Positions 10,156 through 47,925 of a stretch of 64,000 nucleotides of DNA are shown here, one piece after another. Under the pieces are notes generated by a model, which worked only from the letters and a program-made list of their open reading frames with translations, was not told where the DNA came from and ran no database searches. The position numbers and the translations under genes were made by a program. This stretch comes from Promethearchaeota archaeon (GTDB lineage Archaea; Asgardarchaeota; Lokiarchaeia; Sigyniarchaeales; SOKP01), in contig JAHPZJ010000030.1 in the NCBI GenBank assembly GCA_019058245.1, positions 96,001 to 160,000 of the forward strand. Direction: 5' to 3'. How positions within the stretch are numbered: the stretch's first letter is position 1; the number at the start of each line of letters is the position of its first letter.

Positions 10156-10590
10156 TTATAATAATTCCTCTAAAATCTCTATCGCATTTTTAACATAATA
10201 GAAACATTTTTTTTTGAATAACTCATTTTGATTAAAATATTCTCTGCCTTCAGATGTGCTAAGATCACAACCGATTAATTCTTTACAAATTTCGGACCCA
10301 TGTATTTTTTGAAATCGTTTGGAAAATTCTTGTATAACTTCATATGTTTTTTCTTTCATTTCTACTTCTTCATTTGAACCCATTCCATATCTTAATCCTA
10401 TAACCATATAGGACCCACTCACAGCACCACACGTTCGACCAAAACGAGCCATTCCACCTCCAAAACCCGTAGCAATTTTTAATGTAGTTTCTTTATTTAA
10501 TCCAAAATCAGTGCTGAAAGAACTCAATACTGATTGAGCACAATTGCAATTACCCTCAAAATTTGAGATTGCTTTTTCTATTCTTGACAT
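10156..10590 (-). CDS. C_GCAxxG_C_C family putative redox protein
   Basis: NCAQSV, GFGGG, TCGAVSG, GSEICKEL, KKC. Confidence 0.92.
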   Translation of the reverse strand: MSRIEKAISNFEGNCNCAQSVLSSFSTDFGLNKETTLKIATGFGGGMARFGRTCGAVSGSYMVIGLRYGMGSNEEVEMKEKTYEVIQEFSKRFQKIHGSEICKELIGCDLSTSEGREYFNQNELFKKKCFYYVKNAIEILEELL

Positions 10591-22900: not shown

Positions 22901-22923
22901 TGGTTCGTATTTAACCTCTATCC

Positions 22924-23610: not shown

Positions 23611-23617
23611 CCTTTAA

Positions 23618-26424: not shown

Positions 26425-26434
26425 TTTTTAAATA
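26425..26434 (+). promoter_or_regulatory. Putative TATA box for the arg leader/argJ transcript
   Basis: AAAC-TTTTTAAATA about 50 nt upstream of the first possible leader start; AT-rich background limits confidence. Confidence 0.4.
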
Positions 26435-26504
26435 GCGCTTCCTATTATAAAATTATTAATAATTTTGTGTTGGTGTTAAAAGTTTGATTTCACTTGATCT
26501 TAAT

Positions 26505-26591
26505 ATGAATTATGAAATTGATAAAATTCAATTTCTGAGAACACCATACAAATTAAATCTGGCACGTCGCCGTCGTCTGCTAATTTATTAA
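26505..26591 (+). CDS. Putative arginine leader peptide (28 aa; 35 aa if started at TTG 26484)
   Basis: MNYEIDKIQFLRTPYKLNLARRRRLLIY*; Arg run CGT CGC CGT CGT at 26565-26576; stop 112 nt upstream of argJ; in-frame TTG at 26484 has GGTG 8 nt upstream. Confidence 0.8.
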   Translation: MNYEIDKIQFLRTPYKLNLARRRRLLIY

Positions 26592-26661
26592 TAAATATAA
26601 GAATTGAAGTATAATTCTTATTTCTTCACTTCTTCAAATTTATTATTTTTATAATTTTTTT
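26590..26661 (+). terminator. Putative attenuator: hairpin with alternative pairing, then T-tracts
   Basis: ATAAGAATT (26597-26605) / AATTCTTAT (26613-26621); alternative TTGAAG (26604-26609) / CTTCAA (26632-26637) plus AATAAAT / ATTTATT; T5 at 26646-26650 and T7 at 26655-26661. Confidence 0.5.
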
Positions 26662-26703
26662 AAAATATTAATTGATACAAAAATTTTTAATGGTTTATAA
26701 GAA

Positions 26704-27945
26704 ATGGAAAAAAAGAATGCAGGAATAAAGAAAATTAATGGAGGAATTACAAGTCCAAAAGGATATCATGCTACTGGAAGTCATATAGGGATAAAAGAAT
26801 GCAAAAAAGATTTAGCTATAGTATATAGTGATGTTCCAGCCAAAGCAGTAGGTGTCTTTACTACAAATTTATTAAAAGCATCTTCAGTTTTATGGAATCA
26901 GAATCTTATTAAAAATCACAATATGATACAAGGTATAGTTGTTAATAGTGGAAATGCTAACGTTTGTACAGGAGAAATAGGGGATAAACATACAGAAATG
27001 ATGGCTGCTGAGTTAGCTTCTTGTTTGGGATTTAATAAAAATCAAGTAATAGTTGCTTCTACAGGGGTTATTGGAAAACTTCTTCCAATTGAAATTATAA
27101 TTAAGGGTATTAAAAATACTTGTAAAACCCTAGGAATTACTGAAAATGATGCTAGATTGGCTGCTGAAGCAATAATAACGACAGATACACACCCAAAAGA
27201 GATCTCGGTTGAATTTATTATCGATAATAAGAAAATTAGAATTGGAGGTATGGCTAAGGGTTCTGGAATGATTCATCCAAATATGGCAACTATGCTTTCA
27301 TTTATTTCAACGGATATAAATATTTCAAGAGAATTATTGGAAAAAGCTTTAAAAGAAAGCATTGAAGAATCATATAATATGATCTCTGTAGATGGTGATA
27401 CAAGTACTAGTGATTCAGTAATTCTTTTGGCTAATGGAATGAGTAATAACTCAGAAATCTTGGATGAGGGTGAAGATTATCTCACTTTTAAACAAGCTCT
27501 TCACTATGTAAATTTATATTTAGCTCAAGAAATTGTAAGAGATGGAGAAGGAGCAAATAAATTTATTACAGTCCATGTTAAAGGAGCTGCATCAAAGCAA
27601 GATGCAAAGATCTTAAGTAAATCTGTTATAACCTCAAATTTAGTTAAAACCGCATTCTTTGGAGAAGATGCAAATTGGGGTAGAATTATTTGTGCTATGG
27701 GATATTCTGGAGCTAATTTTGATCCTTCAAAAGTTTCAATAAAGTATTTAAATAGTGGTAATTCAATTGAGGTTATGAAAGATGGTATGTCTTTAGAATT
27801 TGATGAAGATTTAGCATTAAAAATATTAAAAGAAAAAGAAATTATTGTAGAATTAATTTTAAAAGATGGAGAAAGTGAGGCAATCGCATGGGGATGTGAT
27901 TTAAGTTATGATTATGTCCGAATTAATGGTTCTTATAGAACCTGA
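26704..27945 (+). CDS. argJ: Bifunctional glutamate N-acetyltransferase/ornithine acetyltransferase
   Basis: NSGNAN..TG, STGVIG, TTDT, KGSGMIHPNMATML, VDGDTSTSD, DGEGA, DANWGR. Confidence 0.96.
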   Translation: MEKKNAGIKKINGGITSPKGYHATGSHIGIKECKKDLAIVYSDVPAKAVGVFTTNLLKASSVLWNQNLIKNHNMIQGIVVNSGNANVCTGEIGDKHTEMMAAELASCLGFNKNQVIVASTGVIGKLLPIEIIIKGIKNTCKTLGITENDARLAAEAIITTDTHPKEISVEFIIDNKKIRIGGMAKGSGMIHPNMATMLSFISTDINISRELLEKALKESIEESYNMISVDGDTSTSDSVILLANGMSNNSEILDEGEDYLTFKQALHYVNLYLAQEIVRDGEGANKFITVHVKGAASKQDAKILSKSVITSNLVKTAFFGEDANWGRIICAMGYSGANFDPSKVSIKYLNSGNSIEVMKDGMSLEFDEDLALKILKEKEIIVELILKDGESEAIAWGCDLSYDYVRINGSYRT

Positions 27946-27958
27946 AAAGGTGGAAAAA

Positions 27959-28819
27959 ATGATTGAAAATATTGGAAAAGCAAAAATTTTGATAGAAGCA
28001 ATAAAATACATCAGAGCTTTTTACAGAAAAACTTTTGTTATTAAATATGGGGGTAGTGCAATGGTAAAACCTGAGCTTAAAAAGAGTTTTATTGAAGACC
28101 TCATTTTCCTCAATTTCGTAGGAATAAATGTAATAGTTGTGCATGGGGGTGGAGCTTCAATTAACACCTTATTAGACAAATTAAAAATCGAGTCAAAATT
28201 TTTTAATGGCCTTAGAATTACCGATGAAGAAACAATGGATGTTGTTGAGATGGTATTAGCTGGTAAAATAAATAAGGGAATAGTAAATGATATTCAAACT
28301 CAAGGAAGTAATGCAATAGGACTAAGTGGGAAAGATAGCAATTTACTGAAGGTCAAGAAAAAAATGGTTGAAGGAGAGGATTTAGGGTTTGTTGGCGAGG
28401 TAACTGAAGTAAATACTCAATTTTTAAAAGGGATACTAAAAAATTCTTTAATTCCTGTTATTGCTCCAATAGGTTCAGATCATATAGGAAATACATATAA
28501 TATCAATGCTGATGAAGTGGCACTAGCCATTTCAAAAGCATTAAATGTAGAAAAGTTAATCTATATAACTGACGTTTTAGGAGTACTTCTTGATGTAAAT
28601 GATAAGAATTCTCTAATATCAGAATTGAGGACTGAACAAGCTTTATCTTATATTAGAGAAGGTAAAATTACAGAAGGGATGATTCCAAAAGTAAGAAGTT
28701 GTATAGAAGCAGTAAATAGTGATGTAAAAGCAGTACATATTATAGATGGTAGAATTGAACATAGTCTTTTACTTGAAATTTTAACTCCTCAAGGGATTGG
28801 TACAATGTTTAAAAAGTAA
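27959..28819 (+). CDS. argB: Acetylglutamate kinase
   Basis: IKYGGSAM, VHGGG, GLRITD, NINAD, GMIPK; start moved to ATG 27959 after AGGTGG. Confidence 0.96.
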   Translation: MIENIGKAKILIEAIKYIRAFYRKTFVIKYGGSAMVKPELKKSFIEDLIFLNFVGINVIVVHGGGASINTLLDKLKIESKFFNGLRITDEETMDVVEMVLAGKINKGIVNDIQTQGSNAIGLSGKDSNLLKVKKKMVEGEDLGFVGEVTEVNTQFLKGILKNSLIPVIAPIGSDHIGNTYNINADEVALAISKALNVEKLIYITDVLGVLLDVNDKNSLISELRTEQALSYIREGKITEGMIPKVRSCIEAVNSDVKAVHIIDGRIEHSLLLEILTPQGIGTMFKK

Positions 28820-28863
28820 AATTATATAAAAAAAGTATAGAAATAAAAGAGAGGAAATTAATC

Positions 28864-30066
28864 ATGAGTGATTGGATTGAAAGGGGAACTAAGGTTATAA
28901 TGAACACTTATAAACAGTTTCCCATTGTATTAGAAAAAGGAAATGGCGTTTATCTCTGGGATAGTGAAGGAAAAAAGTACCTTGATTTTGTTGCAGGGAT
29001 AGCTGTAAATGCTTTAGGTTATAATGATTCTGACTATATTCAAGAAATTACTACACAATTAAAAAAAATGCAACATTGTTCAAATTTATACTGGATGATA
29101 CCATCAATAGAATTAGGCGAGATTTTAATTCAAAATAGTTGTTTTGATAAAATATTTTATTGTAATAGTGGAGCTGAAGCTGTTGAAGCCGCAATAAAAT
29201 TGAGTAAGAAGTATGGAAAGAAAGTCCATGGAAATAATTGTAGTAAAATTATTACAATGAAGAGATCGTTTCACGGAAGAACAATGGCAACGATCACTGC
29301 AACAGGTCAGACTAAATATCAAAAGGGATTCGATCCATTAATGCCTGGATTTTCCTATGTTGAATTTAATAACTATAATGAGTTAAAAGAAGCAGTCAAT
29401 GAAGATACCTGTGCTATTATTATAGAACCTATACAGGGAGAAGGAGGAATTCATCCTGCTGAGAAGTCATTTTTAAAAGAAGTACGAGCTCTGTGTGATG
29501 AAAAAGATATTGTACTTGTATTTGATGAAGTTCAATGTGGAATCGGAAGAACTGGCGAATTATTTGCATATCAATTATTTGATGTAAAACCTGATGTAGT
29601 TTCATTAGCAAAAGGTTTAGCTGGAGGTATTCCCATAGGAGCAATGCTGGCAGTTCAGAGTAAAGCGGATGCTTTTCAACCTGGTGATCATGCATCAACG
29701 TTTGGAGGCAATCATTTAGCATGTACAGCAGGTAAGGTAGTACTAAATAAATTATTAAACGGTGGGATTCTTGAAAATGTACGAAAACAAGGGAAATATC
29801 TAAAAGAAAAGTTAATTAATTTAAAGGAAAAATATGCGATGATTAAAGAGGTAAGGGGCTATGGTTTAATGCTCGGTCTTGAACTAAATATTCCTGTCAA
29901 GGATATAATAGAAATATGTATGGAACAAGGTTTACTTATTTTAGGTGCTGGAGAAAACGTAATAAGATTTGTTCCACCGCTGATAATTAACAAAAATGAA
30001 ATTGATGAAGGAGTAACTATCCTTGATGGGGTACTACAACAATTCAAAAATAATAAAGGTTTATAA
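28864..30066 (+). CDS. argD: Acetylornithine aminotransferase
   Basis: YLDFVAGIAVN.LG, NSGAEA, SFHGRT, DEVQCG.GRTG, AKGLAGG, HASTFGGN. Confidence 0.94.
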   Translation: MSDWIERGTKVIMNTYKQFPIVLEKGNGVYLWDSEGKKYLDFVAGIAVNALGYNDSDYIQEITTQLKKMQHCSNLYWMIPSIELGEILIQNSCFDKIFYCNSGAEAVEAAIKLSKKYGKKVHGNNCSKIITMKRSFHGRTMATITATGQTKYQKGFDPLMPGFSYVEFNNYNELKEAVNEDTCAIIIEPIQGEGGIHPAEKSFLKEVRALCDEKDIVLVFDEVQCGIGRTGELFAYQLFDVKPDVVSLAKGLAGGIPIGAMLAVQSKADAFQPGDHASTFGGNHLACTAGKVVLNKLLNGGILENVRKQGKYLKEKLINLKEKYAMIKEVRGYGLMLGLELNIPVKDIIEICMEQGLLILGAGENVIRFVPPLIINKNEIDEGVTILDGVLQQFKNNKGL

Positions 30067-31112
30067 TGATGATTAGAGCAGGTATAATAGGAGCAACTGG
30101 ATATGTAGGTTCAGATTTAGTTAGAATTTTATATCATCATCCTGAAGTAGAATTAAAATTATTAACTTCTAAAAATCATAAAAATCAAAGTTATAATTCA
30201 GTATATTCAAACTTCAACAAAATATGTGAGATGATATGTGATGAGGATGATCTTGATTCTGCAATAAACCAACTTGATATAATTTTTCTATCATTACCTC
30301 ATGGAGTAACTTCAAGTATATTAACAGATAAGATTTTAAAAAATGTAAAGGTTATTGACCTCAGTGCTGATTTTCGATTAAAGAGTGTAGATGAATATGT
30401 GGAATGGTATAACATTAAACATAGTAATGCTAATCTGTTGAAAAAAGCAGTCTATGGTCTTTCTGAATGGAAAAGAGAACAAATAAAAAATTCAAAATTA
30501 GTTGCTAATCCTGGTTGCTATCCAACTTGTGCTTTATTATGTTTATTACCTCTTATCAAAGAAGGGATTTTAGAAGAAGAACACATAATTATTGATGCAA
30601 AGTCAGGAGTGTCAGGTGCAGGAAGATCTTTAAATCTTGGAACTCATTTCTCAGAAAGTAATGAATCAACTAAGGCATATAACGTTCTCTCTCATCGACA
30701 TACTCCAGAGATCGATCAGGAATTAAGTGAAGTAAATGGAAATGAAATATCAGTTATTTTTACACCCCATCTAATCCCAATGAATCGAGGAATATTATGT
30801 ACTTGTTATGGGATTCTTAAAAAGTCATATAATTATGAAGATATCAAAAAAATATATGAAGATAATTATGAAAATGAATTTTTTATTCGTCTAATGAAGA
30901 AAAATGATTTACCTGAAACGAGATGGGTTAAGGGTTCAAATTATTGTGATATTGGTTTTAGTCTAGATGAAAAAGCTAATAGAATAATTATAGTTGGAGC
31001 AATTGACAATCTAGTTAAGGGTGGAGCAGGACAAGCTGTTCAAAATATGAATTTAATGTTTGATTTAGAAGAGAATATAGGGTTAAAATCAATTCCTATG
31101 TTCCCTGTTTAA
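30066..31112 (+). CDS. argC: N-acetyl-gamma-glutamyl-phosphate reductase
   Basis: GATGYVG, DLSADFR, ANPGCYPT, SGVSGAGR, HRHTPE, DNLVKG.AGQA. Confidence 0.96.
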   Translation: MMIRAGIIGATGYVGSDLVRILYHHPEVELKLLTSKNHKNQSYNSVYSNFNKICEMICDEDDLDSAINQLDIIFLSLPHGVTSSILTDKILKNVKVIDLSADFRLKSVDEYVEWYNIKHSNANLLKKAVYGLSEWKREQIKNSKLVANPGCYPTCALLCLLPLIKEGILEEEHIIIDAKSGVSGAGRSLNLGTHFSESNESTKAYNVLSHRHTPEIDQELSEVNGNEISVIFTPHLIPMNRGILCTCYGILKKSYNYEDIKKIYEDNYENEFFIRLMKKNDLPETRWVKGSNYCDIGFSLDEKANRIIIVGAIDNLVKGGAGQAVQNMNLMFDLEENIGLKSIPMFPV

Positions 31113-31160
31113 AGAAAAATAATAATATAATAGGCAATAATAAAAAAAAGTGAGGGATTA

Positions 31161-32462
31161 ATGAATCAATTAGGACCTAAAAAAAATAAATACAATAAAA
31201 TTTTATTGATGTATTCTGGTGGTCTGGATACTTCTTGCATGATAAAATGGTTACAAGATAAATACAGTTCTGAAGTTTATACCTTTACAGCCGATCTCGG
31301 TCAAGAATTCGTAGATCCATCCAGATTTGAGGAAATAGAAGAAAAAGCATATAATTTAGGGGTTAAAAAACATTACACCATTGATTTAAAAGAGAAATTT
31401 GTATGTGATTATCTTTTTCCAACTATTAAAGCAAATGGTTTGTATCAGGGAATATATCCTTTAAGTACGGCAGTAGGAAGACCCTTAATAGCTATTGAAG
31501 CGATAAAAATTGCAAGACAAGAAAAAATTGAAGCAATAGCTCATGGATGCACAGGTAAAGGAAATGATCAAATAAGGTTTAATGTTACAATGAGAGCTTA
31601 TGCTCCTAATATTGAGATATTGCAACCAATAATAGAATGGAATATGGGTAGAGATGAAGAAATTAAATATGCTCAACTCCATGAAATTCCTATTCAAAAA
31701 CAAAACAAAAAATATAGTGTTGATGAGAATCTTTTTGGACGAAGTGTAGAATGTGATGTTTTAGAATATCCAGAAATTGAACCCCCGGAGGATTGTTATT
31801 CTTGGACAGTATCACCAGAAAATGCTCCTGATAATCCGGAATACATTCAAATTCATTTTGAAAAAGGAATGCCAATCCAATTAAATGATAAAAGTTTAAA
31901 TTGTGTTGATTTAATTAGAGAACTTCATAATATTGGTTGTAAACATGGAATTGGTAGAGTTAATCATATGGAAGATCGAGCAATTGGATTAAAATCAAGA
32001 GAAATATATGAAATTCCCGCGGCGTTAATTTTAATTAAAGCACATAAAGATCTTGAAAAATTTGTTTGTACCAAGCATGAGAATTCGTTTAAAACGATAG
32101 TAGACCAAAGATGGACAGAATTAGCTTATGAAGGATTATGGGTAGATCCATTAAGAGATGCTTTGGAAGCATTTATTAATGTTATAAATGAAAAAGTAAC
32201 AGGAGAAGTAAAAGTGAAACTTTTCAAAGGGAGTGCTAGTGTGGTTTCAAGGGAATCTCCTTATGGCCTCTATGATATAAATTTAGCTACATATGATACC
32301 AAGAGTACATTCAATCAAAAATTGAGTTATGGATTCATTCCAATATGGGGATTACAAAGTGAGATTGGTTTTCAAGTCAGAAATACTGCTAAATCAATAA
32401 CAGGATCTACAAATAATGACCAAATGGAGGAGGTAATAAAATATGAAACTAAAAAAGAATAA
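31161..32462 (+). CDS. argG: Argininosuccinate synthase
   Basis: YSGGLDTS, HGCTGKGNDQIRF, YSVDENL, GLKSREIYE. Confidence 0.96.
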   Translation: MNQLGPKKNKYNKILLMYSGGLDTSCMIKWLQDKYSSEVYTFTADLGQEFVDPSRFEEIEEKAYNLGVKKHYTIDLKEKFVCDYLFPTIKANGLYQGIYPLSTAVGRPLIAIEAIKIARQEKIEAIAHGCTGKGNDQIRFNVTMRAYAPNIEILQPIIEWNMGRDEEIKYAQLHEIPIQKQNKKYSVDENLFGRSVECDVLEYPEIEPPEDCYSWTVSPENAPDNPEYIQIHFEKGMPIQLNDKSLNCVDLIRELHNIGCKHGIGRVNHMEDRAIGLKSREIYEIPAALILIKAHKDLEKFVCTKHENSFKTIVDQRWTELAYEGLWVDPLRDALEAFINVINEKVTGEVKVKLFKGSASVVSRESPYGLYDINLATYDTKSTFNQKLSYGFIPIWGLQSEIGFQVRNTAKSITGSTNNDQMEEVIKYETKKE

Positions 32463-32781
32463 TAAAGATGTTAAAAATAATAAAAATACATATAAATTGT
32501 ATTATAGAGGGTATATCCTAATTCGCTTAAAAGTGATTGGTTCTGAATGGAAAGTTGTTGATAAACTCAAGGGCTTAAAATCAACAGATCCAGGAGAAGA
32601 TTGGAATATAACATATGCTACTCCAGTTTATGGGGGATGGGATGTTATGGTAGAATGCTCATTTAGTAGACTGAGAGATTTAGATAAAATTGTTACCTTT
32701 TGTAGAGTTGATAAAGATTTATCTCAATGGATTGAAGAAACAACTACTCTAATGGGTTCTAAAAATGATTACCCTGGGTAG
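32443..32781 (+). CDS. Stand-alone Lrp/AsnC ligand-binding (RAM) domain protein
   Basis: GYILI...VYGGWDVMV...LRDLDKIV...ETTTL pattern, no HTH; overlaps argG by 20 nt, SD GGAGGAGG. Confidence 0.7.
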   Translation: MKLKKNNKDVKNNKNTYKLYYRGYILIRLKVIGSEWKVVDKLKGLKSTDPGEDWNITYATPVYGGWDVMVECSFSRLRDLDKIVTFCRVDKDLSQWIEETTTLMGSKNDYPG

Positions 32782-32942
32782 CTTTCTTTTATTATTGTCA
32801 TTAAACATATGATAAATTATCAAATGAATCAGTATCAAAACTCAAATCTGTTTCAGATACAATTTTATATACAAAAAAAAAGATGAAAAATTAAAAAGTA
32901 TTATAAATATAAATAGAGAAACAGAATTGCTTTTCCATTCAA

Positions 32943-34277
32943 TTATTTTATAATAGCCTGTTTTTTAAACTCCTCGATCTCATTTTCACTATAACCAAAC
33001 TGTTCTAAAACAGAAACCGAATCCTCTCCTAAAGTTGGGGCACCTTTTCTGGGTTTAACCGGGGTTTTTGAGAACCTAATCGGGGTACTGATCATCTTAT
33101 AAGCACCATGTTCACTATTTTCAAGATTGCACATCATATTCATGGCCTTCACTTGAGGATCATAGAATAGATCCACACTGTAATTTACTTGTCCACAAGG
33201 AACACCAGCGCTTTCCAGAGCTTCGATCCATTCCTGATTTGTTTTTTCTCGAAAACGTCTTTCAATCTGATGTGTTAGATCCTTTTGATGATTGATAATC
33301 TCATCAGTTATTTCACTAAAGTCAACCCCAGCTCCCTTATCATAAATATCTATTACTTTATTTACAATTTTTCTCTGCCGGCTGGTGACCGCAGCAATGC
33401 TAATAAAACCATTAGCAGTTTCGTAAATCCGATAGTAGGGAAAAAAATACCTGTCTGCGGGTCTATGATTACAATCTGGAACATCAATTATTCTGGTTGA
33501 ATCAGGTCTATCATATCGTCGTTTTAAGTATACTAACGCGTCAATAATTTCTGTATGTGACTTTTCCTCCTGAAAAGCGTTGCTTAAAAGATCCAATTCT
33601 TCTTTATATCTTTCCTTATCTAATTTTTCGATGTTCACGACGCTTGTGAGCTGTAAAGCCAAAGCAGTGGTAAAAAGTGATGTTTCAATTTTTTGACCCT
33701 CGCCAGTCTTTATTCTGGTAAAAAGAGCAGCCACAGCGCTAAGGGTATTGAGTATAGCAGTACAGATATCAATGTACGCAATTCCTCCTGGTCCCTTAGG
33801 ATTACCGTCTTCATCTGCATAATAAGCCATAATGCCAGAAGCTGCATGTGCAATAAGATCTAATCCTCTACGATTTTTATAGGGTCCAATTTCTCCAAAT
33901 GCCGTACTTGAGATGAAAATCAACTTTTTATTAATGGTTGATAGAGTATCATAATCAATCCCAAGTTTTTTAGCGACTCCAGGGGTGTAATTTTGAAGTA
34001 CAACATCAGCTTTTTCAACAAGCCGATAGATAATCTTTTTAGCTGCTTTCTTTCTAATATCCAGGCAAAGACTTTTCTTATTCCTATTCATCGTCAAGGA
34101 AGATCTTGTATTACCTTTATAAATTTTAGAAGGCCCCCATCTTCTTTCTTCGGATCCATCAGGAGGTTCGATTTTTATTACCTCTGCACCCAAATCCCCA
34201 AGGAGGCCTCCACAATATGGACCGGCAATGTATTCAGAAAAATCTAAGACAATTATACCATCTAAAATCCCACTCAT
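32943..34277 (-). CDS. Family III CoA-transferase (CaiB/BaiF)
   Basis: VLDFS..IAGP, LGAEVIKIEPP.G, NRNKKSL, NYTPG, GEGQKIETSL, APTLGE. Confidence 0.93.
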   Translation of the reverse strand: MSGILDGIIVLDFSEYIAGPYCGGLLGDLGAEVIKIEPPDGSEERRWGPSKIYKGNTRSSLTMNRNKKSLCLDIRKKAAKKIIYRLVEKADVVLQNYTPGVAKKLGIDYDTLSTINKKLIFISSTAFGEIGPYKNRRGLDLIAHAASGIMAYYADEDGNPKGPGGIAYIDICTAILNTLSAVAALFTRIKTGEGQKIETSLFTTALALQLTSVVNIEKLDKERYKEELDLLSNAFQEEKSHTEIIDALVYLKRRYDRPDSTRIIDVPDCNHRPADRYFFPYYRIYETANGFISIAAVTSRQRKIVNKVIDIYDKGAGVDFSEITDEIINHQKDLTHQIERRFREKTNQEWIEALESAGVPCGQVNYSVDLFYDPQVKAMNMMCNLENSEHGAYKMISTPIRFSKTPVKPRKGAPTLGEDSVSVLEQFGYSENEIEEFKKQAIIK

Positions 34278-34469
34278 TTACTATCTTCTCTTTTATTAAT
34301 AAAAATCATATTTAATAGATTGTTCAAAGAGTAGATTATATATTCTTTCTCTTCAAAGTTCCTCTTTTTTAATTTTCTAAAAGTCCTAAAAGAGTTATAA
34401 AATAAAATTTTTTTATATTTTTTCTTTTTATATCATTGTTAAAGATTAAAGAGGCAAGACTCTTTAAAT

Positions 34470-35543
34470 TTAAGATAATTTCTTATCTTCAATTATTTTT
34501 AATTTACTTTTAGCTCCAATCTTTTTAAATTCACTAGGACTGATTTCTATATCTTTTCCGGTCAAAGCATTTACAATTGTTGCTGTTAATATTCCCCAAG
34601 GACAAATCGAATTAGATAATTCTTCTGGTCTCATATAAGACCGAACTATTGCGGTGGAACAATTAACAGATTCCACAGTAAATTCATTTTCAGAGATCCA
34701 CTCTAATTTAAGATTTTCAGCCATACCTATTTCAGAAAATTTTTCCATCGCAATTTCTAAAGCTTCGTTTAGATTATATTTTTTTAATTCGTTCAGATCA
34801 AGTCCAATTTGTTTAGAATATCTTTCCAAGAATTCATAAGTTTTAGGAAAAACGTACTTATATAAAACAGGAGTTCCAACAAGTTCTTTTGCACTTCCTT
34901 CATAACCAAATGTTATTCCGTGTAAAATCATAGCAACACCATGAAGGCTTGTCCTTTTTGTGGGTTCTCCATAAGTTTTATATTTAAATGCTTTTACTAA
35001 GATCAAAAGACATAAACCAATGAAAATTGAAATAATTATTGACACTAAATAATTTGGCATTATAAACGGATATGGAATCTTATTTATTGGATTTACATAA
35101 AAATAGAAATCAATATTACTAGTAAAATAACTTAATGCCCATCCCGCAAATCCAATTGGACCGATAATCTTTCCATATTCATATATAAAATCTTTTTTGA
35201 ATCTAGCAATAATAAACTTGATTGTAAACAATACAAATGCTATAATACCACCTAAAAATGTATGCCAAAATACAGTATTAATAAAAAATACTTCAAAATC
35301 ACTTGGATTTAACCGGGGTATTACTCCAAAGTAAATACAAAGTATTGTCAATAAGTAAAAAATTAATGCTGCAGTCCATCCAAACCTTTTATGTGCTTTT
35401 ACTTCTAACAAGGTTAATTCTTTTAAATTCCTTATATGTGAAAGTCCAATAAAAAAATTAGCTAAAGCTAGCCCAAATCCAATTGTCGAAAGATACAGCA
35501 TAAAATGATTTAGGAATTCCATAAATGGTATTTGTAATATCAT
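34470..35543 (-). CDS. Membrane protein with C-terminal V4R-like soluble domain
   Basis: About 5 TM with His residues; C-terminal NCS..ICPWG motif. Confidence 0.6.
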   Translation of the reverse strand: MILQIPFMEFLNHFMLYLSTIGFGLALANFFIGLSHIRNLKELTLLEVKAHKRFGWTAALIFYLLTILCIYFGVIPRLNPSDFEVFFINTVFWHTFLGGIIAFVLFTIKFIIARFKKDFIYEYGKIIGPIGFAGWALSYFTSNIDFYFYVNPINKIPYPFIMPNYLVSIIISIFIGLCLLILVKAFKYKTYGEPTKRTSLHGVAMILHGITFGYEGSAKELVGTPVLYKYVFPKTYEFLERYSKQIGLDLNELKKYNLNEALEIAMEKFSEIGMAENLKLEWISENEFTVESVNCSTAIVRSYMRPEELSNSICPWGILTATIVNALTGKDIEISPSEFKKIGAKSKLKIIEDKKLS

Positions 35544-35664
35544 TTTAATATCCCATTTAATTTATTAAAAATTATTATTATTAACTTGTTTAATTAAAAT
35601 TTAAGAATAATTTCCATTATAATATTATTGTATTTAAAACTAATGCTTAAATGGTAAAGATAAA

Positions 35665-36771: not shown

Positions 36772-37088
36772 ATTTAGAAATATTAATTTTTAAGTTAATA
36801 ATTAAATCTCTATTTAATTGTATAATTATAGAATTTTTTTAAGATTTGTAAGTTTTTTCCTTTATTGAAGTCAATCATCTTTCAATACTATTATTAAAAT
36901 TCTCAATATGAAATATTTATTTAAACTTTATCCTTTATTTTCAAACATCTATTTTTAGGTTGTAAAATTTCGTAAAAAAAAAGCTTAAATATAATTTCTA
37001 CTATAAAGTAGATAAAATAATTCTTAATGAATTGCTAAAGAATTTAAATTAACTAACTTCTGAATTTTTATTGAATTAATTTAATAAA

Positions 37089-37784
37089 ATGAGAAAGGAA
37101 AGAGGTGTAATATTTATTTCTCAAGATGATATGGAAGATCTAACAACAAACCTAGATAATAAGGTTGTAAAAGCTTTACAGAACAAGGTTGATTCATATG
37201 AAAAAGAGATCGGCGAATTAAAAGGGATCTTGGAAAAGAAAGATGAAGAATACGCAAATTTAGCAAAAACTAAAGAAAAACTGAATTCTGAATTAGAGGA
37301 ACTTCGAGGAAAACTTACAGATTTAAAAAGTAAATCCGCTAACCTTGAAAAATTAAATAGTGAAGTGTACGATTTAAAGAAAACAATTACTTTGAAAGAT
37401 GACGAAATCAATAAATTAAAAACTGAAGTGGATGAATCTAAACCTAAAGTTACAGAATTAACCAAAAACAATGAAGCGTTAAATAATAGTATTGCTGAAA
37501 AGGAATCTAAAATTAAAGAATTAACGGATACTATAGCAGAAAAAGAAAATGCACTTAATGAACAAAACAGTAGATTAGAAAAAGTAGAAACGGAATTATC
37601 AGCTCTACAGCCAACAGCACCAGTTGATTATTCAACTGAGGAACGATTAGTCTGTCCAAGTTGTGGTGCGAGAGGAAAGGATCTAAAGGTTGAAGAAGAT
37701 AAAAGTAAAATCCTAAGCTATATTGGACATTCCCCCATGTATTCTAAAACCAATGTCTGTAAGAAATGTGGTTATAAGTTTTAA
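37089..37784 (+). CDS. Coiled-coil protein with C-terminal zinc ribbon
   Basis: About 150 aa of heptads, then CPSCG...CKKCGYKF; start codon uncertain. Confidence 0.8.
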   Translation: MRKERGVIFISQDDMEDLTTNLDNKVVKALQNKVDSYEKEIGELKGILEKKDEEYANLAKTKEKLNSELEELRGKLTDLKSKSANLEKLNSEVYDLKKTITLKDDEINKLKTEVDESKPKVTELTKNNEALNNSIAEKESKIKELTDTIAEKENALNEQNSRLEKVETELSALQPTAPVDYSTEERLVCPSCGARGKDLKVEEDKSKILSYIGHSPMYSKTNVCKKCGYKF

Positions 37785-37966
37785 TTAATTTTAAGTTAAA
37801 CTCGTATTTGAGCAAAAAGGTGCAAGATATATAAAAAAGAATTTCTTTTTTTATTTTTTTTATCTAATACGAGATAATGCTAAAATTTAGAATTTTTTAT
37901 TAAATAAAACTAGAAAAATTATATTTCAGTTAGAATTTATTAAAACTCTGCTATCTATGAAATCTA

Positions 37967-39469
37967 CTAAAATCGAACTTTTATATCTCTCTTATGAAGA
38001 TAAGATTTTAAATCCTTGATTTTTATTGTCTTTGTATGGAACAAAGATGCTGCTAAGACCGCTTCTGCCCCAGCTTTAATAGCTTCATAAAAATGTTCAT
38101 AATTACCTGCTCCACCCGAAGCAATTAATGGTACTGATATCACATTGGTGAGATTTTGAATTAATTTAAAGTCATAACCTAATTGAGTCCCATCTCGATC
38201 CATACTAGTAACAAGTAGTTCCCCTGCACCCCTTTCAACAACTTCTTTTGCCCATTCTATTGCATCTAATCCTGTTGATTCTGTACCCGCCTTTATATAT
38301 ACTTCCCAAGTATCTGCTTTTTTCTTTACGTCAATTGCACACACAATAGACTGACTTCCAAACTTTTGAGCACCTTCAGTTATAACTTTGGGATTATCTA
38401 CGGCAGCAGTGTTAATACTTACTTTTTCTGCCCCTGTATTAATGATATTTGTTATATCATTCAAATTTCTAATACCGCCTCCTACTGTAAAAGGAATATA
38501 TACTTCTTCAGCAACCTTTCTCAAAGTTTGATACAATATTGATCGTTTTTCTAAGGTTGCAGAAATGTCTAGAAATACTAATTCATCCGCACCTTCTGAA
38601 TTATAGAATCTAGATAATTCTACAGGGTCTCCACTATCCTTCAAGTTGAGGTATTGTACACCCTTTACTACTCTTCCATCTTTAATATCAAGGCATGGCA
38701 CTATCCTTTTTGCTAAATTGGTTGGGTCATACTTTTTTGTTAAATCTCTTAAATTTTTATTACTTAATTTATTACTATAAAACGCTTTTCCAATAATAAC
38801 ACCATCTGCATAGTGTAGAACTTGATTAATATCATTTAAATTGCTTATTCCACCAGAAGCAATTACTTTGGTGTCTGGATGTTTAATATTTGAAATATTC
38901 TTGTATATCTCAAAATTAGGGCCTTCTAAAGTTCCATCACGTGATACATCGGTTATTATAAAGTTTGAAACACCTTGTTCTTCTAAATTCTTAAACTGAG
39001 ATTCTAAAGTAATATTTGTATCTTCAAGCCAACCCTTTATCCTCAAATTACCATTGAGAACATCTAGTGCAACTATTATATCATTATTATATTTTTTCAT
39101 TAAATTCCTAAAAAGAGTTTGATTTTCAATAGCAATAGTCCCAATAATAACCTTATAAAGCCCTAGACCTAATAATTCTCTAATAGTTCTTTCAGTCCTG
39201 ATTCCCCCTCCTAGTTGAATTTTTGAGCCCCATTTCTTACTTTCTTCTATCAAAGATCTTATAACTTCATAATTTGGTCCATTCTCAAATTCACCTGATT
39301 TTGCTCCATTTAAATTTATAACGTGTATCTGCTCGATCCCTTGATTAAAAAAATTCTTAAGTAATTCAACAGGTCTTTTAGAATAATTATTAATTTTATC
39401 AAAATCTCCTTTATATAACCTAACAACATTACCATTTAACAAATCAATAGCAGGAATTATTTTTTTCAT
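37967..39469 (-). CDS. hisA-hisF: Fused HisA (ProFAR isomerase) - HisF (imidazole glycerol phosphate synthase cyclase subunit)
   Basis: N-half [27 protein letters not shown]; C-half [34 protein letters not shown]. Confidence 0.94.
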
Positions 39470-39476
39470 ATTATAA

Positions 39477-40070
39477 TCACCTCTTTATCAAGGAAATGAA
39501 ATATTTAATAATTCTATCACCTGCATCTTGACTTTTTTCTGGATGAAATTGGGTAGCTATTACGTGATCTTTTAGGATTATAACTGGAATAGAGATCCCA
39601 TGATTTACATAAGAGATTATAGTATTTTTATCATTGGGATTACAATAATATGAATGGTTAAAATAAACATAACCATAAAAATATGGTTTTGAAGATGGGA
39701 TTAATCTATTCCATCCAGTATGAGGAATTCTAATAGATTGATTTGGGGTTAATCTAATTACCTTTCCAGGGATGATATCTAATCCACTAATATCTAAAGA
39801 TTCTTCAGAATTTGAAAATAATAGTTGCATGCCTAAGCAGATACCCATTGTTGGAACAGTAAGAATAGAATCTTTTAATGGGGAGAACAATCCATTTTGT
39901 TTAAGTTCTTTAACAGCATCACCAAAAGCGCCTACTCCAGGGAGAATCAAACCTTTAGATTTCTCTATTAAATCTAGATCTCTTGAAATAATGACATCCG
40001 GATAAAATCTTTGAACACTTTTTTGAATCGACCGAAGATTGCCACTACCATAATCTATTATAGTAATCAT
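39477..40070 (-). CDS. hisH: Imidazole glycerol phosphate synthase glutaminase subunit
   Basis: IIDYGSGNL, PGVGAF, GICLGMQ, PHTGWN, QFHPEKS; start moved to ATG 40070. Confidence 0.95.
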   Translation of the reverse strand: MITIIDYGSGNLRSIQKSVQRFYPDVIISRDLDLIEKSKGLILPGVGAFGDAVKELKQNGLFSPLKDSILTVPTMGICLGMQLLFSNSEESLDISGLDIIPGKVIRLTPNQSIRIPHTGWNRLIPSSKPYFYGYVYFNHSYYCNPNDKNTIISYVNHGISIPVIILKDHVIATQFHPEKSQDAGDRIIKYFISLIKR

Positions 40071-40083
40071 GTTAAATACCAAA

Positions 40084-40689
40084 TTACAATATTCCTTTAC
40101 TTGAAGGAAGTTTTCGATTCCCTTTTGAATCAATTCTAGTGCTATAATCCAATGCTTTACCTAGAGATTTAAATATTGCTTCTGCAATATGATGGTTATT
40201 TTTACCATAGAGAACTCTAACATGGAGTGTTATTTGGGCATTAATTGAAAATGTATATAAAAAATGCTCTATTAAATCGACTGGGATTAAATTATCCTCC
40301 TTCGATCCTATAAACGGATTTGTCCAATTGATTTGCTTTTTAAAAAATGGTCTTGAAGAGATATCGATGGCAACAAATGCGAGGCACTCATCCATAGGAA
40401 AAAAACAATGTCCAACTCGTGTAATTCCAATTTTATTTCCTAAGGCTTTATTAAAAACTTTACCTAATACAATGGAGGTATCTTCAATGAGGTGATGATT
40501 ATCAACATTAAGATCACCCTCCGCAAAAATATTCATATCAAATTTTCCGTGAATAGCAATTTGGGTAAGAAGATGATCAAAAATACCGATTGAAGTCTCA
40601 ATTTTACAATCACCAACTCCATCAATATTAATTTCAATATTAATGCTTGTTTCCTTGGTTTTTCTTTCTAATTTAGCTTTTCTTTCCAT
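40084..40689 (-). CDS. hisB: Imidazoleglycerol-phosphate dehydratase (monofunctional)
   Basis: RKTKET, FDHLL, HH.IED, PMDE, NNHHIAE; ATG 40689 after GAGGAG. Confidence 0.96.
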   Translation of the reverse strand: MERKAKLERKTKETSINIEINIDGVGDCKIETSIGIFDHLLTQIAIHGKFDMNIFAEGDLNVDNHHLIEDTSIVLGKVFNKALGNKIGITRVGHCFFPMDECLAFVAIDISSRPFFKKQINWTNPFIGSKEDNLIPVDLIEHFLYTFSINAQITLHVRVLYGKNNHHIAEAIFKSLGKALDYSTRIDSKGNRKLPSSKGIL

Positions 40690-40690
40690 T

Positions 40691-41824
40691 TTAATTCTCC
40701 TCAAAATATGATTTTAATATTTCTATTACCTTTTTCATTTGTAAACTTGTACCTATTGAGATTCTCAAGCAATTTGAGAGTTCTGCTGTATAATTTCTTA
40801 CTTTAATTTTATTATTCAATAAATATTGATAAACTGAATCTGAAATTTCAGATGATTCAAATCTTAATAAAATAAAATTTGTCTGACTTGGATGTATATA
40901 AAAAATCTTATTATTCTTTCTTAAATTAAGAAGGTCCTTAAAAAATTCTTCTCGAATAGATATGATTTTTTTAATATTTGCTGAAATTTCATCTTTTTTA
41001 TCTAATAATAATAAACCATATTGCAAAGCTACATTATTTACATTAAAAGGGCTTTTTATACGAATTAATATTTCATTAATGGAAGGATTTGATATTGTAT
41101 AACCTAATCTTAATCCTGCGAGAGAATAAGACTTGCTAAATGATCGAGAGATAATTAAATTATCATAAGATTTGATTAAATCTACTGCACTCAGACCATC
41201 ACTGAAATCAATATAAGCTTCATCAATAATTACTAATTTTTTCAACATTAAAAGTTGTTTAATAAAATCAAGAGAGATTAACATTCCATCTGGATTATTT
41301 GGTCTAGATAAGATAATAATATTTGATGATTTAGCCCTCTTCATAAAATTGAGTTGATCTAAATCATATTCTGCAATACCCGTTGTTTCATTTATTGATA
41401 ATCTTAGCGGAAATGATTCATACTTTGCACCATTTATATTCGCAAAAAATTTATACATTGAAAACGTTGGATCAATGCTTAAAATAGTGGTTTTAGGTGT
41501 GGCATAGATCTTAATGATAAGACCTATAATTTCATTAGAGCCTGTTCCTGCTAAGAGATATGAAATAGGTAATTCTAGATCCTTTGATAGCTTATCTAAA
41601 AATGTATTAGCATTCAAATCTGGATAATTTTTTAAAATATTTAATGATTTTAAATTTGCTAAATCTCCTAAAGGTGGTACAAAAGGACTTTCATTTTTAT
41701 CTAAAAATATCATCTCATTTTCCTGGCTCGATTTATCTAAATATGAAAGTGAATCAAAATTTTGAGAATCTAAGTACTTCCTAATAATTTTAGAAGGCTT
41801 AATAGTGTAATTTTTTTTATCCAA
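40691..41824 (-). CDS. hisC: Histidinol-phosphate aminotransferase
   Basis: LDKNESP, PNNP.G, DEAY, RSFSKSYSLAGLRLG, RISIG. Confidence 0.93.
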   Translation of the reverse strand: MDKKNYTIKPSKIIRKYLDSQNFDSLSYLDKSSQENEMIFLDKNESPFVPPLGDLANLKSLNILKNYPDLNANTFLDKLSKDLELPISYLLAGTGSNEIIGLIIKIYATPKTTILSIDPTFSMYKFFANINGAKYESFPLRLSINETTGIAEYDLDQLNFMKRAKSSNIIILSRPNNPDGMLISLDFIKQLLMLKKLVIIDEAYIDFSDGLSAVDLIKSYDNLIISRSFSKSYSLAGLRLGYTISNPSINEILIRIKSPFNVNNVALQYGLLLLDKKDEISANIKKIISIREEFFKDLLNLRKNNKIFYIHPSQTNFILLRFESSEISDSVYQYLLNNKIKVRNYTAELSNCLRISIGTSLQMKKVIEILKSYFEEN

Positions 41825-43156
41825 TTAACGCCCCTCCTTTACATTTTTATTTAAAGCTGTCCTTAAAGCTGCCGCATTTGCATGTCCTGTTAGGTCTTCA
41901 GATTTTGCTATTATTTCAGCATGTTCAGATAATCTAAAAGCTGTTTCTTCATTTAAATAGACATAACTAATCCTTTTAATAAAATCATAAACTGATAAAG
42001 CAGATGAAAAGCGAGCTGTGCCATTTGTCGGCATCACATGACTAGGTCCTGCTATATAGTCACCTAAAACTTCAAAGGAGTTTTCTCCTATAAAAATCCC
42101 TCCTGCATTTTCTATTTTATCTAAAACTGTCATAGGCTCTTTAATCATAAGAGATAAATGTTCAGGTGCAAATTCATTTGAAATTTGTATTGATTCTTCT
42201 ATTGAATTTGTTAAAACAATACCACCATTGCTTTGAATTGATTCTTTAATAATAGATTTTCCTTTCAGAGTTATAATTTGCCTTTCTAACTCTTTTTTCA
42301 CAGATGAAATTAAATTTTCAGATGAAGTAACTAAGATAGGAATAGCTAAAATATCGTGTTCTGCTTGTGCTAATAGATCTGAAGCAACTAATGAGGGATT
42401 TGCTGTTTCATCAGCAATTACCAATGCTTCAGTAGGTCCATATATCCCATCAATTCCCACTGTTCCATAAACTTCCTTCTTTGCTAAATTTACATAGATA
42501 TTTCCAGGTCCTACGATTTTATCCACTCTAGGAATTTGTTCCGTTCCAAATGCCATAGCTGCAATAGCTTGAGCTCCACCTATCCTAAAAATTCTTATAT
42601 TGATATCATACTTCTTGATTAACCCAAAAGTTGCGAGGATAATGTTTGGTAAAGTACCTTGCTTATTGGGAGGAGAAGTAAATATTATATTTTTAACTCC
42701 TGCTACTATGGCTGGTATAGTTGCCATTAAAATTGAAGAAAATAGAGGAGCTATTCCTCCTGGAATATATATTCCAACTGTTTCAATAGGTTTTATGATT
42801 TGACCTATTTGACCGCCAAGGTTATAATTCATCCAAGAGATGATAGGTTGAAATTTATGAAAATTATAAATTCTCTCACATGCAATTTCTAAAGCTTTTC
42901 TTAACTTAGGATTAATAGAACTCAGATATTTTTCAAAATCAACATCTAATAATTCAAATTGTTCAATATCTACTTTATCTAACTTTAATGTCCAATCTTT
43001 AAGTGCTGCGTCTTTTCTTTCCTTGACATCTTTTACAATGACTTTTACACTTTCCTCTGGAGTAATATCTTCACTTTTAGACATTTCATTTAAAGTAGTA
43101 AAATATCTATTTAATATAGTATTTCTAGCTTCATCAACTGTATAAGTTTTAATCAT
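41825..43156 (-). CDS. hisD: Histidinol dehydrogenase
   Basis: YIPGG, GGAQAIAA.A.GT, GPGN.YV, DLLAQAEH, APEHL, GDY.AGPSHVMPT. Confidence 0.96.
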   Translation of the reverse strand: MIKTYTVDEARNTILNRYFTTLNEMSKSEDITPEESVKVIVKDVKERKDAALKDWTLKLDKVDIEQFELLDVDFEKYLSSINPKLRKALEIACERIYNFHKFQPIISWMNYNLGGQIGQIIKPIETVGIYIPGGIAPLFSSILMATIPAIVAGVKNIIFTSPPNKQGTLPNIILATFGLIKKYDINIRIFRIGGAQAIAAMAFGTEQIPRVDKIVGPGNIYVNLAKKEVYGTVGIDGIYGPTEALVIADETANPSLVASDLLAQAEHDILAIPILVTSSENLISSVKKELERQIITLKGKSIIKESIQSNGGIVLTNSIEESIQISNEFAPEHLSLMIKEPMTVLDKIENAGGIFIGENSFEVLGDYIAGPSHVMPTNGTARFSSALSVYDFIKRISYVYLNEETAFRLSEHAEIIAKSEDLTGHANAAALRTALNKNVKEGR

Positions 43157-44168
43157 TATACATCCCCAAATTCTTTAATAATTTAATATATCTCAAAGGT
43201 TCTTCCTCAAAAATATAGAGTGTGGGAGCGACAACTACACCACTTCCTCCAATTGCTCTTAAACTTCTTATTGCTTTTTGTAATTTTTCCTTCTCAACTA
43301 TTACATGAATAGCATACATTTTTTCTCCACTTTTTGTAAAGACTGATGAGATTGTAGGTCCTTGAAGGCCTTCAAGTCCCTTTTTAGAAAAGACATTATT
43401 AGCAATTTCCTCTGGGCTTTCTCCTCTCATGTTTACAAAAACTGATACAAAATTTTGAGCTCTTAAAGTAGCTTCAATAAATTCAATCAATTGACGAGCA
43501 ACTTTTAAAACAGTCTCATTTTTTAAAGCAGTTTGATTTCCAATAAGTACCGACTCAGATGTCATTATTTTTCCACCATTAATTCTTTTTAAACGATTAT
43601 CCTTTAAAGTTTGTCCTGTTGATACAAGATCAACTATGATATCACTATAACCTAGCTCAGGATATACCTCAATAGAGCCATTACCTTTAATTAACTCATA
43701 CTCAATATCAAGGGAACTCAAAAACTGTTTAGTAAGTTTTGTAAATTTAGTAGCGACTCTAAGTGATTTCTTATTTATCTTTATCTCTTCAATTGATTCT
43801 TCTGTCCAATCTTCAGGAACTGCTATTTCAAGGCTGCATTTTCCAAAATTTAATGCATTGTGCATAATTACTAACTCATTTTCATTTAAAGGTGTATATT
43901 CAAGCACTAGATCATAACCAACTATACCCATTTCTAAAGACCCATTCAACACGCCTCTAACAATATCTACTTGTCGTTGATAAACCAATTGAAGATTAAT
44001 GAGTCCTTGGATTGATCCGATATATTGTCTATTGTTTCTTTGTATATTAAAGCCGCAACTTCTTAAAAATTCTTGAGTTTCGATTTCCATTCTTCCCTTC
44101 GAAGGAATTGCTAATCTTACTTGACGAGATTTATATTTTGGAAATATTTTTTGTAGATCTTCTTTCAT
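43149..44168 (-). CDS. hisG: ATP phosphoribosyltransferase, long form
   Basis: [34 protein letters not shown]; C-terminal regulatory domain. Confidence 0.96.
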
Positions 44169-45073
44169 CTATTTCTCCTCCTTAATTCGGTGATTATTTC
44201 TTCAGGTTTAATTTTTTTGGTAGCCATTAATACAAGAATAAAATAAGTTACGTCAGCTATTTCCCAAATTAAGTTGTCCCTATCGGTATAATTTATCACT
44301 TCGGTACACTCTTCCTCAATTTTAGACATTAATAATTCATTATTTTCTGCAAGTTTTTTACTATAAGATTCATTTACACTATAATTTTCAATTCTATCAA
44401 TTATTAAATCATAGAGAAATTTTATAGAAAATTTCTGATCCTGAAAACAAGAATAAGAACCTTTATGACAAGCAAAACCTTTTTGTTTTACTCTAAATAA
44501 TAAAGTATCTGCATCACAATCGTATAAAATTTTCTTTATAATTTGATAATTCCCTGATTCTTCGCCTTTTATCCATAGTCGGTTTCTTGATCTGCTGAAG
44601 TAAGTTGATCTTCTAGTTTTGATTGTTTGTTTCAAAGACTCTTTTGATGAATATGCGAGCATTAGAACATTATCATCGAGATCTTGAACTATTGTTGGAA
44701 TCAATCCATTTCCTTTATCAAAATCTAAAATATTAAACAAAATATTATCTATCAATGAATAATCTTTAATTGAGTTAAAACTTAAAATTTCATCATTTTT
44801 ATGAGATTGTGGATTATATTTTATCATTCCCTTTTCTGTTATTAAATCATTCAATTCTTTTTGATTAATTTCTGAATCATTCCATATTTTAACCTTTTTA
44901 GAAACTCTCTTAAGCATATCACTCTTTATCAGTGCAATAAGACTTTCCTTACTAGCTTCAAGAACAAGAATCATAAACAGATCCCAATTTCGTTTTATAT
45001 ATACTCCATCTATAAACTCTTTTAAGCTTCCAAGCGTTTTCATATCCTTCATATTAATTTTTAATATTATCAT
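44165..45073 (-). CDS. hisIE: Bifunctional PR-AMP cyclohydrolase / PR-ATP pyrophosphatase with about 110-aa N-terminal extension
   Basis: [32 protein letters not shown]; KIEEE..E, WEIAD. Confidence 0.93.
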
Positions 45074-45079
45074 AATTAT

Positions 45080-45167
45080 TCCCCCAAACTAAAATTGAAT
45101 TTAGTTTGATTTAAATCCGATGAATAAAAGATACCTTATACTATATTAATTCATCGGAATTATTCAT
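45080..45167 (-). promoter_or_regulatory. Putative his attenuator RNA structures
   Basis: 10-bp inverted repeat TCCGATGAAT (45116-45125 / 45149-45158); competing 8-bp pairing 45120-45127 / 45160-45167; 9-bp hairpin 45085-45093 / 45100-45108 touching the GGGGGA SD (45080-45085) of hisIE. Confidence 0.65.
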
Positions 45168-45324
45168 GATGTAGCCAATGATGCAAGTATGAATTACGGG
45201 TTTTAAAACAATCACCTCTCACATCATTCGATTTAATAACAAGATTGTTATTAAAGTTATTTATAATAAAGAAACTCAATTTAGAAAGACATTGGTTAAG
45301 AACATTTTTTCTATTAAAATCCAT
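45160..45324 (-). CDS. Putative histidine leader peptide (54 aa; 20 aa if started at GTG 45222)
   Basis: MDFNRKNVLNQCLSKLSFFIINNFNNNLVIKSNDVRGDCFKTRNSYLHHWLHHE*; all four His codons at 45166-45183; stop 86 nt upstream of hisIE; AAGTGA before the ATG. Confidence 0.75.
   Translation of the reverse strand: MDFNRKNVLNQCLSKLSFFIINNFNNNLVIKSNDVRGDCFKTRNSYLHHWLHHE
45232..45255. repeat. 24-bp near-perfect palindrome in the his upstream region
   Basis: TTTAATAACAA-GA-TTGTTATTAAA. Confidence 0.7.
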
Positions 45325-45571
45325 ACCAAATTCACTTTTATTGAGTTCTTTTTATCAAAGCCAGAGTTATTCGGCTTATATCAATTTATTATATAATTTA
45401 TGGAAAAGAACCTAAAAAAGTTTTCTATTATTTAGTTCTAAAAAAATCAAGGTTTTGTTTGATCTTGTTAAATTTTTTCAATTCTCAAGCAGAAATATAA
45501 ATTTTAACATATAAAAGGATCTAATAAAATAAAATCTTATTTCAATAAGGGAAATTATAAGAACTGTAAAC

Positions 45572-47878: not shown

Positions 47879-47925
47879 GTGATTTCTATTATTTTTTTTT
47901 TTGAAATAAATCATTATTAAAATGA

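Follow-up and report, generated by a model that had tools for sequence, protein, structure and literature searches.

Two short upstream open reading frames (uORFs), one ending in a run of arginine codons and one in a run of histidine codons, precede the arginine (arg) and histidine (his) biosynthetic operons of a lokiarchaeon; both are real and conserved leaders, and they are very probably functional. They lie in a stretch of 64,000 nucleotides (nt), here called the window (Promethearchaeota archaeon, Lokiarchaeia, Sigyniarchaeales; assembly GCA_019058245.1, contig JAHPZJ010000030.1, positions 96,001–160,000, forward strand). The best explanation as a whole, to which we give a probability of roughly 0.6, is that each leader is a gauge of charged transfer RNA (tRNA) in which a hairpin sets the output. 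Translation of the uORFs, stalling, the direction of regulation and the output step are inferred from the reading frames, the cognate runs, their conservation and the positions of the helices.

Cognate-codon frames and their conservation

The original prediction, made from the letters of the window, had described two short uORFs with the cognate amino acid clustered near the stop, 86–112 nt ahead of the first gene. Coordinates, frames and runs were confirmed (Table 1), with 112 nt from the Arg uORF stop to the argJ ATG and 86 nt from the His uORF stop to the hisIE ATG. Three further codons separate the Arg run from its TAA. CGT and CGC make up 16% of the Arg codons of the genome, and the terminal Arg codons of five leaders are nearly all CGT or CGC.

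Frames and cognate runs were then compared with relatives, in which frames, starts, Shine–Dalgarno (SD)-like motifs and runs were all kept. The Arg leader is present in 5/5 members of the genus that have argJ; the SD-like GGTG and the start codon align (TTG here, ATG in G024), and an in-frame ATG at 26505 is without conservation. The His leader precedes hisIE in 16 genomes of three genera (HisIE identity 53–91%), with the stop 75–92 nt before the start codon and 4–8 His codons close to the end. When 12 His leaders were aligned, internal stops numbered 0 in the uORF frame versus 3–13 in the other two frames, and the internal insertions and deletions (6, 9, 12 and 42 nt) were all multiples of three. 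The peptide body drifts among the His leaders and varies across the five Arg orthologues, and in both sets the tail is kept. Because the peptides diverge outside the cognate tail, the codons and not the peptide product appear to be under selection.

For an estimate of the chance level, 1762 upstream regions were scanned blind to gene function and 4513 short frames were ranked by how strongly their last ten codons were enriched in an amino acid. The top-ranked frame was a Leu run before leuA, and His/hisIE, Trp/trpD, Ile/ileS and Arg/argJ were also near the top; this one genome thus carries a cognate run ahead of the matching gene for five amino acids. A uORF with at least four His in the last ten codons occurred in one region (the his operon) and one with at least four Arg in nine; at the observed counts His, Leu and Ile runs occurred once each genome-wide, Trp twice and Arg nine times. 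The Arg tail taken alone is therefore only moderately rare, so the Arg case is carried by conservation and the others hardly need it. That the frames are chance products, or encode small proteins working in trans, was judged very improbable. Short frames are indeed common and Arg-rich tails recur, but it is the tail and not the body that is conserved, the amino acid matches in every case, and the design recurs with unrelated sequence in Candidatus (Ca.) Lokiarchaeum ossiferum (below); conservation appears largely to refute chance, and neither leader peptide gave a Pfam match, which speaks against a protein acting in trans.

The distribution of the leaders is restricted. No Arg leader precedes the argJ of another family (L004), and no shared Arg-tailed uORF was found among 24 outside ArgJ homologues taken from a metagenome scan and apparently first in their operons; these relatives look non-Asgard (46–57%). 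Of eight Loki ArgJ proteins, seven group together in a single supported clade, and the sequences around it come mostly from gut metagenomes. The simplest reading of these sequences is that the Arg leader arose inside this genus, with loss elsewhere as the alternative. Nine remoter hisIE-fusion homologues (47–55% identity) had no His uORF. No match to ArgR was found in the five genomes carrying the Arg leader, and argH (24845–26329), which lies 5' of the leader, has no Arg uORF of its own.

An SD of the GGAGGTGA type is enriched ahead of the genes of this genome (22% versus 6% background); SD use was deduced from this enrichment because the 16S rRNA with its anti-SD was not found in the assembly. 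A TATA-like match alone is weak in an AT-rich genome, and because the genome-wide test of TATA position was flat, the candidate promoters of both leaders were assigned from conservation only.

Helices, ribosome position and candidate outputs

Of 56 leaders, 40 had a stable hairpin (z < −2) in the 75 nt around or after the stop, compared with 5% of 120 ordinary gene stops; the median start of this hairpin lay between −6 and +6 nt relative to the stop, and the Trp leaders were the weakest group. In the mechanism proposed, a ribosome would initiate at the SD and start codon of the uORF itself. With the amino acid scarce it would stall on the cognate codons shortly before the stop, and the stop hairpin could form; with the amino acid plentiful it would get to the stop and melt the hairpin base. 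A hairpin at the stop is positioned to report the arrival of the ribosome, and its state would set operon expression. Stalling at cognate codons as a sensor of charged tRNA is highly probable in our judgement; it is favoured because no other reading explains why cognate runs end translated, sequence-free frames for six amino acids. The original proposal of charged-tRNA sensing by uORFs is supported in this respect, the design recurring for Leu, Trp, Ile and Val.

The arg output would most probably be premature termination of transcription: an intact hairpin would mask part of the U-rich tract, and a melted one would expose the tract to the U-tract/aCPSF1 machinery. In archaea the termination signals are U-tracts that aCPSF1 reads, and the Loki version of this protein functions with U-tracts when placed in Methanococcus (PMC8716108). 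When nascent arg RNA was folded, the unpaired fraction of the U-tract rose from 0–0.2 with the ribosome on the Arg codons to 0.3–0.6 with the ribosome at the stop in 4/5 genomes. U-runs in the arg leader are 6–9 nt long, but the A+U-rich hairpin has the tract itself as a pairing partner and is at best a non-classical terminator. The 5' helix reached a single-sequence z of −2.8, and the post-stop hairpin is weak in this genome alone (z −0.8 for the whole spacer).

By computation, the segment adjacent to the Arg stop has two alternative partners, the U-rich tract side or the argJ SD region. For the 10 nt paired with the argJ SD, 94% of cells were paired, two pairs had changed on both sides and 11 of 500 shuffles scored as high (n = 5 sequences). 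These covarying positions speak for the same sensing with a purely translational output in every leader, in which the stalled ribosome would cover an anti-SD segment and free the ribosome-binding site belonging to the first gene. In the consensus fold of leu leaders of the L. ossiferum type, the leuA SD is paired with Leu codons, and P3 of the his leader adjoins the SD; both observations also fit this model. It is nevertheless unlikely as a general account: no general anti-SD signal was found, a variable spacer sets the conserved elements of the ileS and trp leaders 130–430 nt away from the start codon, and the conservation of the arg U-tract exceeds what a translational model requires.

Five conserved helices were found in the his leader (P0, two within the uORF, P2 and P3). 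In P0, 95% of cells were paired in 12 genomes, in columns that are mostly invariant; the helices within the uORF show one A-U/G-C swap (5/12 sequences), and in the three 5' helices together four pairs changed on both sides. P2 (94.5% of cells paired, five pairs changed on both sides, 15 genomes) and P3 (88%, three pairs) together gave eight such pairs, a score as high being reached by 0/500 shuffles, and slid controls were 25–52% paired versus 92%; these covariation counts come from related genomes and should not be read as probabilities. The competing stem-loops that had been predicted after both uORFs stand, by computation, only for arg; P2 and P3 are mutually compatible and not exclusive. 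The classical attenuator layout proposed for his was not borne out, its leader showing no terminator/antiterminator pair and no U-tract (longest U-run 3–4 nt across seven leaders of the same type). Because a U-tract is missing, the his output was assigned to hisIE translation initiation, which would be controlled beside P3. Polarity, which is known in archaea, would then carry the effect along the operon. For the two assignments taken jointly, arg through termination and his through hisIE initiation, we put the odds at about even.

Several helices within the uORF constrain its sequence, as would be expected if protein or uncharged tRNA bound the leader as a structured RNA (in the manner of a T-box or of the LEU element) and its reading frame were incidental; protein binding has been proposed for the actinobacterial LEU element (PMC1262725). 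This alternative has very little to commend it, since 3–12 cognate codons, an SD with a start codon and triplet-only indels point to translational selection and not to one specifier codon, and the window held no Rfam match. A third version of the same sensing, in which the hairpin state would set messenger RNA (mRNA) cleavage or decay, has a precedent in Salmonella orf34-speF with RNase G (PMC6386406). A nuclease site would suit a hairpin whose loop is U- or pyrimidine-rich and which is not part of a classical terminator. Since termination by aCPSF1 is itself coupled to cleavage, these two outputs are difficult to tell apart; cleavage or decay was considered improbable.

Several results weigh against hairpin-set outputs as described above. 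The U-tract switch was not seen in the arg leader of this genome (0.59–0.64 versus 0.60), where a 4-nt insertion has displaced the stop; the arg structure is based on only five AT-rich sequences; and the relatives compared are not independent samples. In equilibrium folding with ribosome footprints, neither the SD nor the U-tract changed its accessibility in a way that was consistent between families, and the general anti-SD duplex test was negative (median percentile 0.24–0.58 versus random starts). Folding and the duplex test thus give no single switch common to all families, and therefore outputs may differ between leaders.

Table 1. Features of the arg and his leaders in window positions, with the leader cluster of Ca. 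L. ossiferum
Feature	Position	Strand	Remarks
TATA-like element (candidate promoter) 5' of Arg uORF	26425..26432	+	Similar T-rich/A element at equivalent site in relatives
5' helix over Arg uORF SD	26465..26551	+	26465-26475 with 26542-26551, encloses hairpin 26514-26535; RNAalifold, 5 genomes
SD-like GGTG, 8-9 nt 5' of Arg uORF start	26472..26475	+	Invariant in 5/5 genomes
Arg leader uORF	26484..26591	+	35 codons, TTG start, TAA stop
Candidate Arg sensor codons CGT CGC CGT CGT	26565..26576	+	Cognate run in Arg uORF
Alternative segment pairing with argJ SD region (~26687-26696)	26582..26591	+	Computed, 5 sequences
Hairpin from Arg uORF stop	26589..26646	+	A-rich 5' arm pairs with beginning of U-rich tract; nascent-RNA folds
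U-rich tract, candidate archaeal termination signal	26639..26661	+	Conserved, 15-17 U per 20 nt
argJ-argB-argD-argC-argG operon	26704..32462	+	NCBIfam
TATA-like element (candidate promoter) 5' of His uORF	45412..45419	-	Motif also upstream in most relatives
Helix P0	45273..45347	-	45347-45339 with 45281-45273; encloses uORF SD (45336-45332) and start codon; 12 genomes
His leader uORF	45160..45324	-	54 codons, ATG start, ends HHWLHHE-stop
Two helices within His uORF	45177..45253	-	Hairpin 45253-45234; 45228-45221 with first two His codons (45184-45177); 12 sequences
Candidate His sensor codons (HH-W-L-HH)	45166..45183	-	Cognate run in His uORF
Hairpin P2	45112..45162	-	5' arm opens with uORF stop codon; 15 genomes
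Hairpin P3	45085..45108	-	Adjoins hisIE SD-like G run (45085-45081); covariation
his operon: hisIE fusion, hisG, hisD, hisC, hisB, hisH, hisA/F fusion	37967..45073	-	NCBIfam: hisIE, hisG, hisD, A/F; hisC, hisB, hisH by sequence and gene order
L. ossiferum branched-chain cluster leaders Leu/leuA; Ile/cimA; Ile/Leu/Val/ilvB	L138:5714-5824, 7616-7728, 9797-9901

Among the neighbouring genes, a 112-residue open reading frame without Pfam match (32443–32781, + strand) overlaps the end of argG and may join the arg transcript. A polar amino-acid ATP-binding cassette transporter (21387–24439, − strand; binding protein PF00497, two permeases and an ATPase) is divergent from argH; it may import Arg, His or Gln, and no cognate uORF was found in the intergenic region that it shares with argH. 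HisIE (44165–45073, − strand) has about 105 extra N-terminal residues beyond the HisIE model, and other relatives have versions of about 400 residues. Further along (46205–50013, + strand), a gene for a leucine-rich-repeat protein that ends in a TIR-like domain precedes a gene of the N-6 DNA methylase/specificity type, both assigned by visual inspection of the sequence; the pair may mark a defence island.

Leaders for other amino acids and in Ca. Lokiarchaeum ossiferum

Leu leaders precede leuA in 16 genomes, which belong to two families, Trp leaders precede trpD in 13 genomes and extend into another order, Ile leaders precede one ileS paralogue in 12/12 orthologues, and one genome has a Val leader before valS. 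No cognate leader was found before the aspartokinase, homoserine dehydrogenase, pheA, dap or stand-alone ilvC genes (five genomes), before the hisG-D-C type operons of G018, G026 and G060, or before cysK, serA, carAB and aroC in this genome; none was seen at the lysine, threonine, phenylalanine, serine and cysteine genes examined. A wider contig scan yielded a single locus, the same record as L167.

One genome of the same order as the host (G055) was identified by exact protein match as the cultured Ca. L. ossiferum B-35. It carries five leaders, for His, Leu, Trp, Ile (before cimA) and Ile/Leu/Val (before ilvB), three of them within 5 kb. Its His leader precedes hisC and is unlike that of the window in sequence, and its Leu leader is already on record as the hypothetical protein NEF87_002999. 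Assembled RNA contigs begin at 5679–5686 in three runs (leu uORF ATG at 5714) and at 9786–9810 in four runs (ilvB uORF ATG at 9797), and in two runs they continue beyond the leu uORF and across leuA. This indicates, though weakly, that the leu and ilvB uORFs lie on mRNA, as assembled contigs of one study show neither starts nor levels; gaps in contig cover 3' of the leaders, in two low-cover runs, were not counted as evidence of termination. The L. ossiferum His leader (L137:7210-7420) is followed by a hairpin and an 8-U run, nearer to a classical terminator than the His leader of the window.

The ileS paralogue with the Ile leader (L106, G000:C31, ~10370-10380, − strand; orthologues L105, L109–L112, L118 and L119) has an apparent ATT or ATA start 6–7 nt after a GGTG SD, and in the orthologues L103, L107, L108 and L116 the aligned codon is ATG; a non-AUG start on an Ile codon of an isoleucyl-tRNA synthetase gene could be a second layer of control. 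In the L106 leader the uORF SD region has two possible alternative partners, the codons preceding the Ile run and a 9-nt stretch, invariant in sequence, within the loop of the hairpin after the stop, and in the ileS leader a U-tract is kept about 105 nt past the stop. A second, paralogous Trp-rich leader (L266, G000:C6:110799-111956, − strand) stands before a GNAT acetyltransferase-methyltransferase fusion gene just 3' of the trp operon, which suggests that the fusion gene has a role connected with Trp. A further frame of 14 codons, three of them Met (L267, G000:C22, upstream of 44013, − strand), stops 72 nt short of an ACT-domain/homoserine dehydrogenase/threonine synthase operon; it was not recovered as a leader in relatives and is probably due to chance.

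Relation to known systems and meaning

Leader-peptide attenuation is a textbook bacterial mechanism. The enterobacterial leaders hisL, trpL, leuL, thrL, ilvL and pheL are short translated uORFs with clustered cognate codons and with helices that include those codons and start near the stop, and the leaders described here share the cognate-codon uORF before a biosynthetic operon and the position of the helices. They differ in their archaeal host and polymerase, in uORF length (longer here, 35–54 codons) and, for his, in having neither a G+C-rich terminator hairpin with U-run nor an exclusive antiterminator. Arginine control in enterobacteria is exerted by ArgR, and we know of no arg leader of this type there. 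Among the features of classical attenuators, clustered cognate codons 5' of the cognate operon and a separate start with a conserved frame were found; an intrinsic terminator between uORF and first gene and homology to Rfam His_leader or related families were not (the Rfam scan of the window gave 0 matches that reached the gathering score). The system works like bacterial attenuation but is not a member of the classical terminator/antiterminator type. A T-box riboswitch was considered and rejected, there being no Rfam match in the window and no conserved T-box motif in the leader alignments.

The fungal arginine attenuator peptide (Neurospora arg-2, yeast CPA1) is likewise a uORF controlling an arginine-pathway gene; there a conserved nascent peptide senses free arginine, stalls the ribosome at high arginine and blocks scanning, whereas in the present leaders the body of the peptide lacks conservation, a run of codons is the signal and Pfam gave no match. 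The suggested place of these leaders between bacterial attenuation and eukaryotic uORF control was not sustained: genes and SD-led initiation are prokaryotic in style, and nothing points to scanning-type control. Similar in design are the poly-cysteine short frames of mycobacteria (the 'ribulon'; bioRxiv 10.1101/834739), leaderless uORFs that unmask the next SD. Both systems have several loci per genome with a cognate run ending the uORF and no classical terminator, and the change of downstream structure by stalled ribosomes in mycobacteria is also what is proposed here; the present uORFs are SD-led and serve many amino acids, and for them SD unmasking is weakly supported. In Salmonella, consecutive Arg codons in orf34/speFL, a uORF of about 34 codons, set mRNA folding by arginine supply (PMC6386406). 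Length and Arg codons are comparable, but its target is ornithine decarboxylase, reached through Rho and RNase G, and the target here is arginine synthesis; the likeness drawn is one of design.

No description of leader-peptide attenuation in archaea was found in full-text literature searches, which missed most subscription papers. Leader-like features were reportedly once suggested for the trp genes of Methanothermobacter and Thermococcus. The leaders can be tested directly, as the cultured Ca. L. ossiferum has five of them and they are short enough for reporter fusions; its branched-chain cluster of three is the best experimental locus. They also serve as annotation tags for the amino acid with which an operon is concerned.

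A broader reading, which we put forward tentatively and at somewhat less than even odds, is that Lokiarchaeia possess, across the genome, a set of amino-acid sensors read by the ribosome (Arg, His, Leu, Trp, Ile, Val and branched-chain), evolved afresh before their operons, in which a stop-anchored hairpin would hide a U-tract from, or expose it to, the CPSF73-like aCPSF1; it would include an arg operon whose closest outside relatives look bacterial. If this is true, attenuation would have been built upon the archaeal-eukaryotic termination machine. If the charged-tRNA gauge is true, ribosome position or transcription-translation coupling would be used for regulation in the lineage nearest to eukaryotes, with a eukaryote-like polymerase and terminator.

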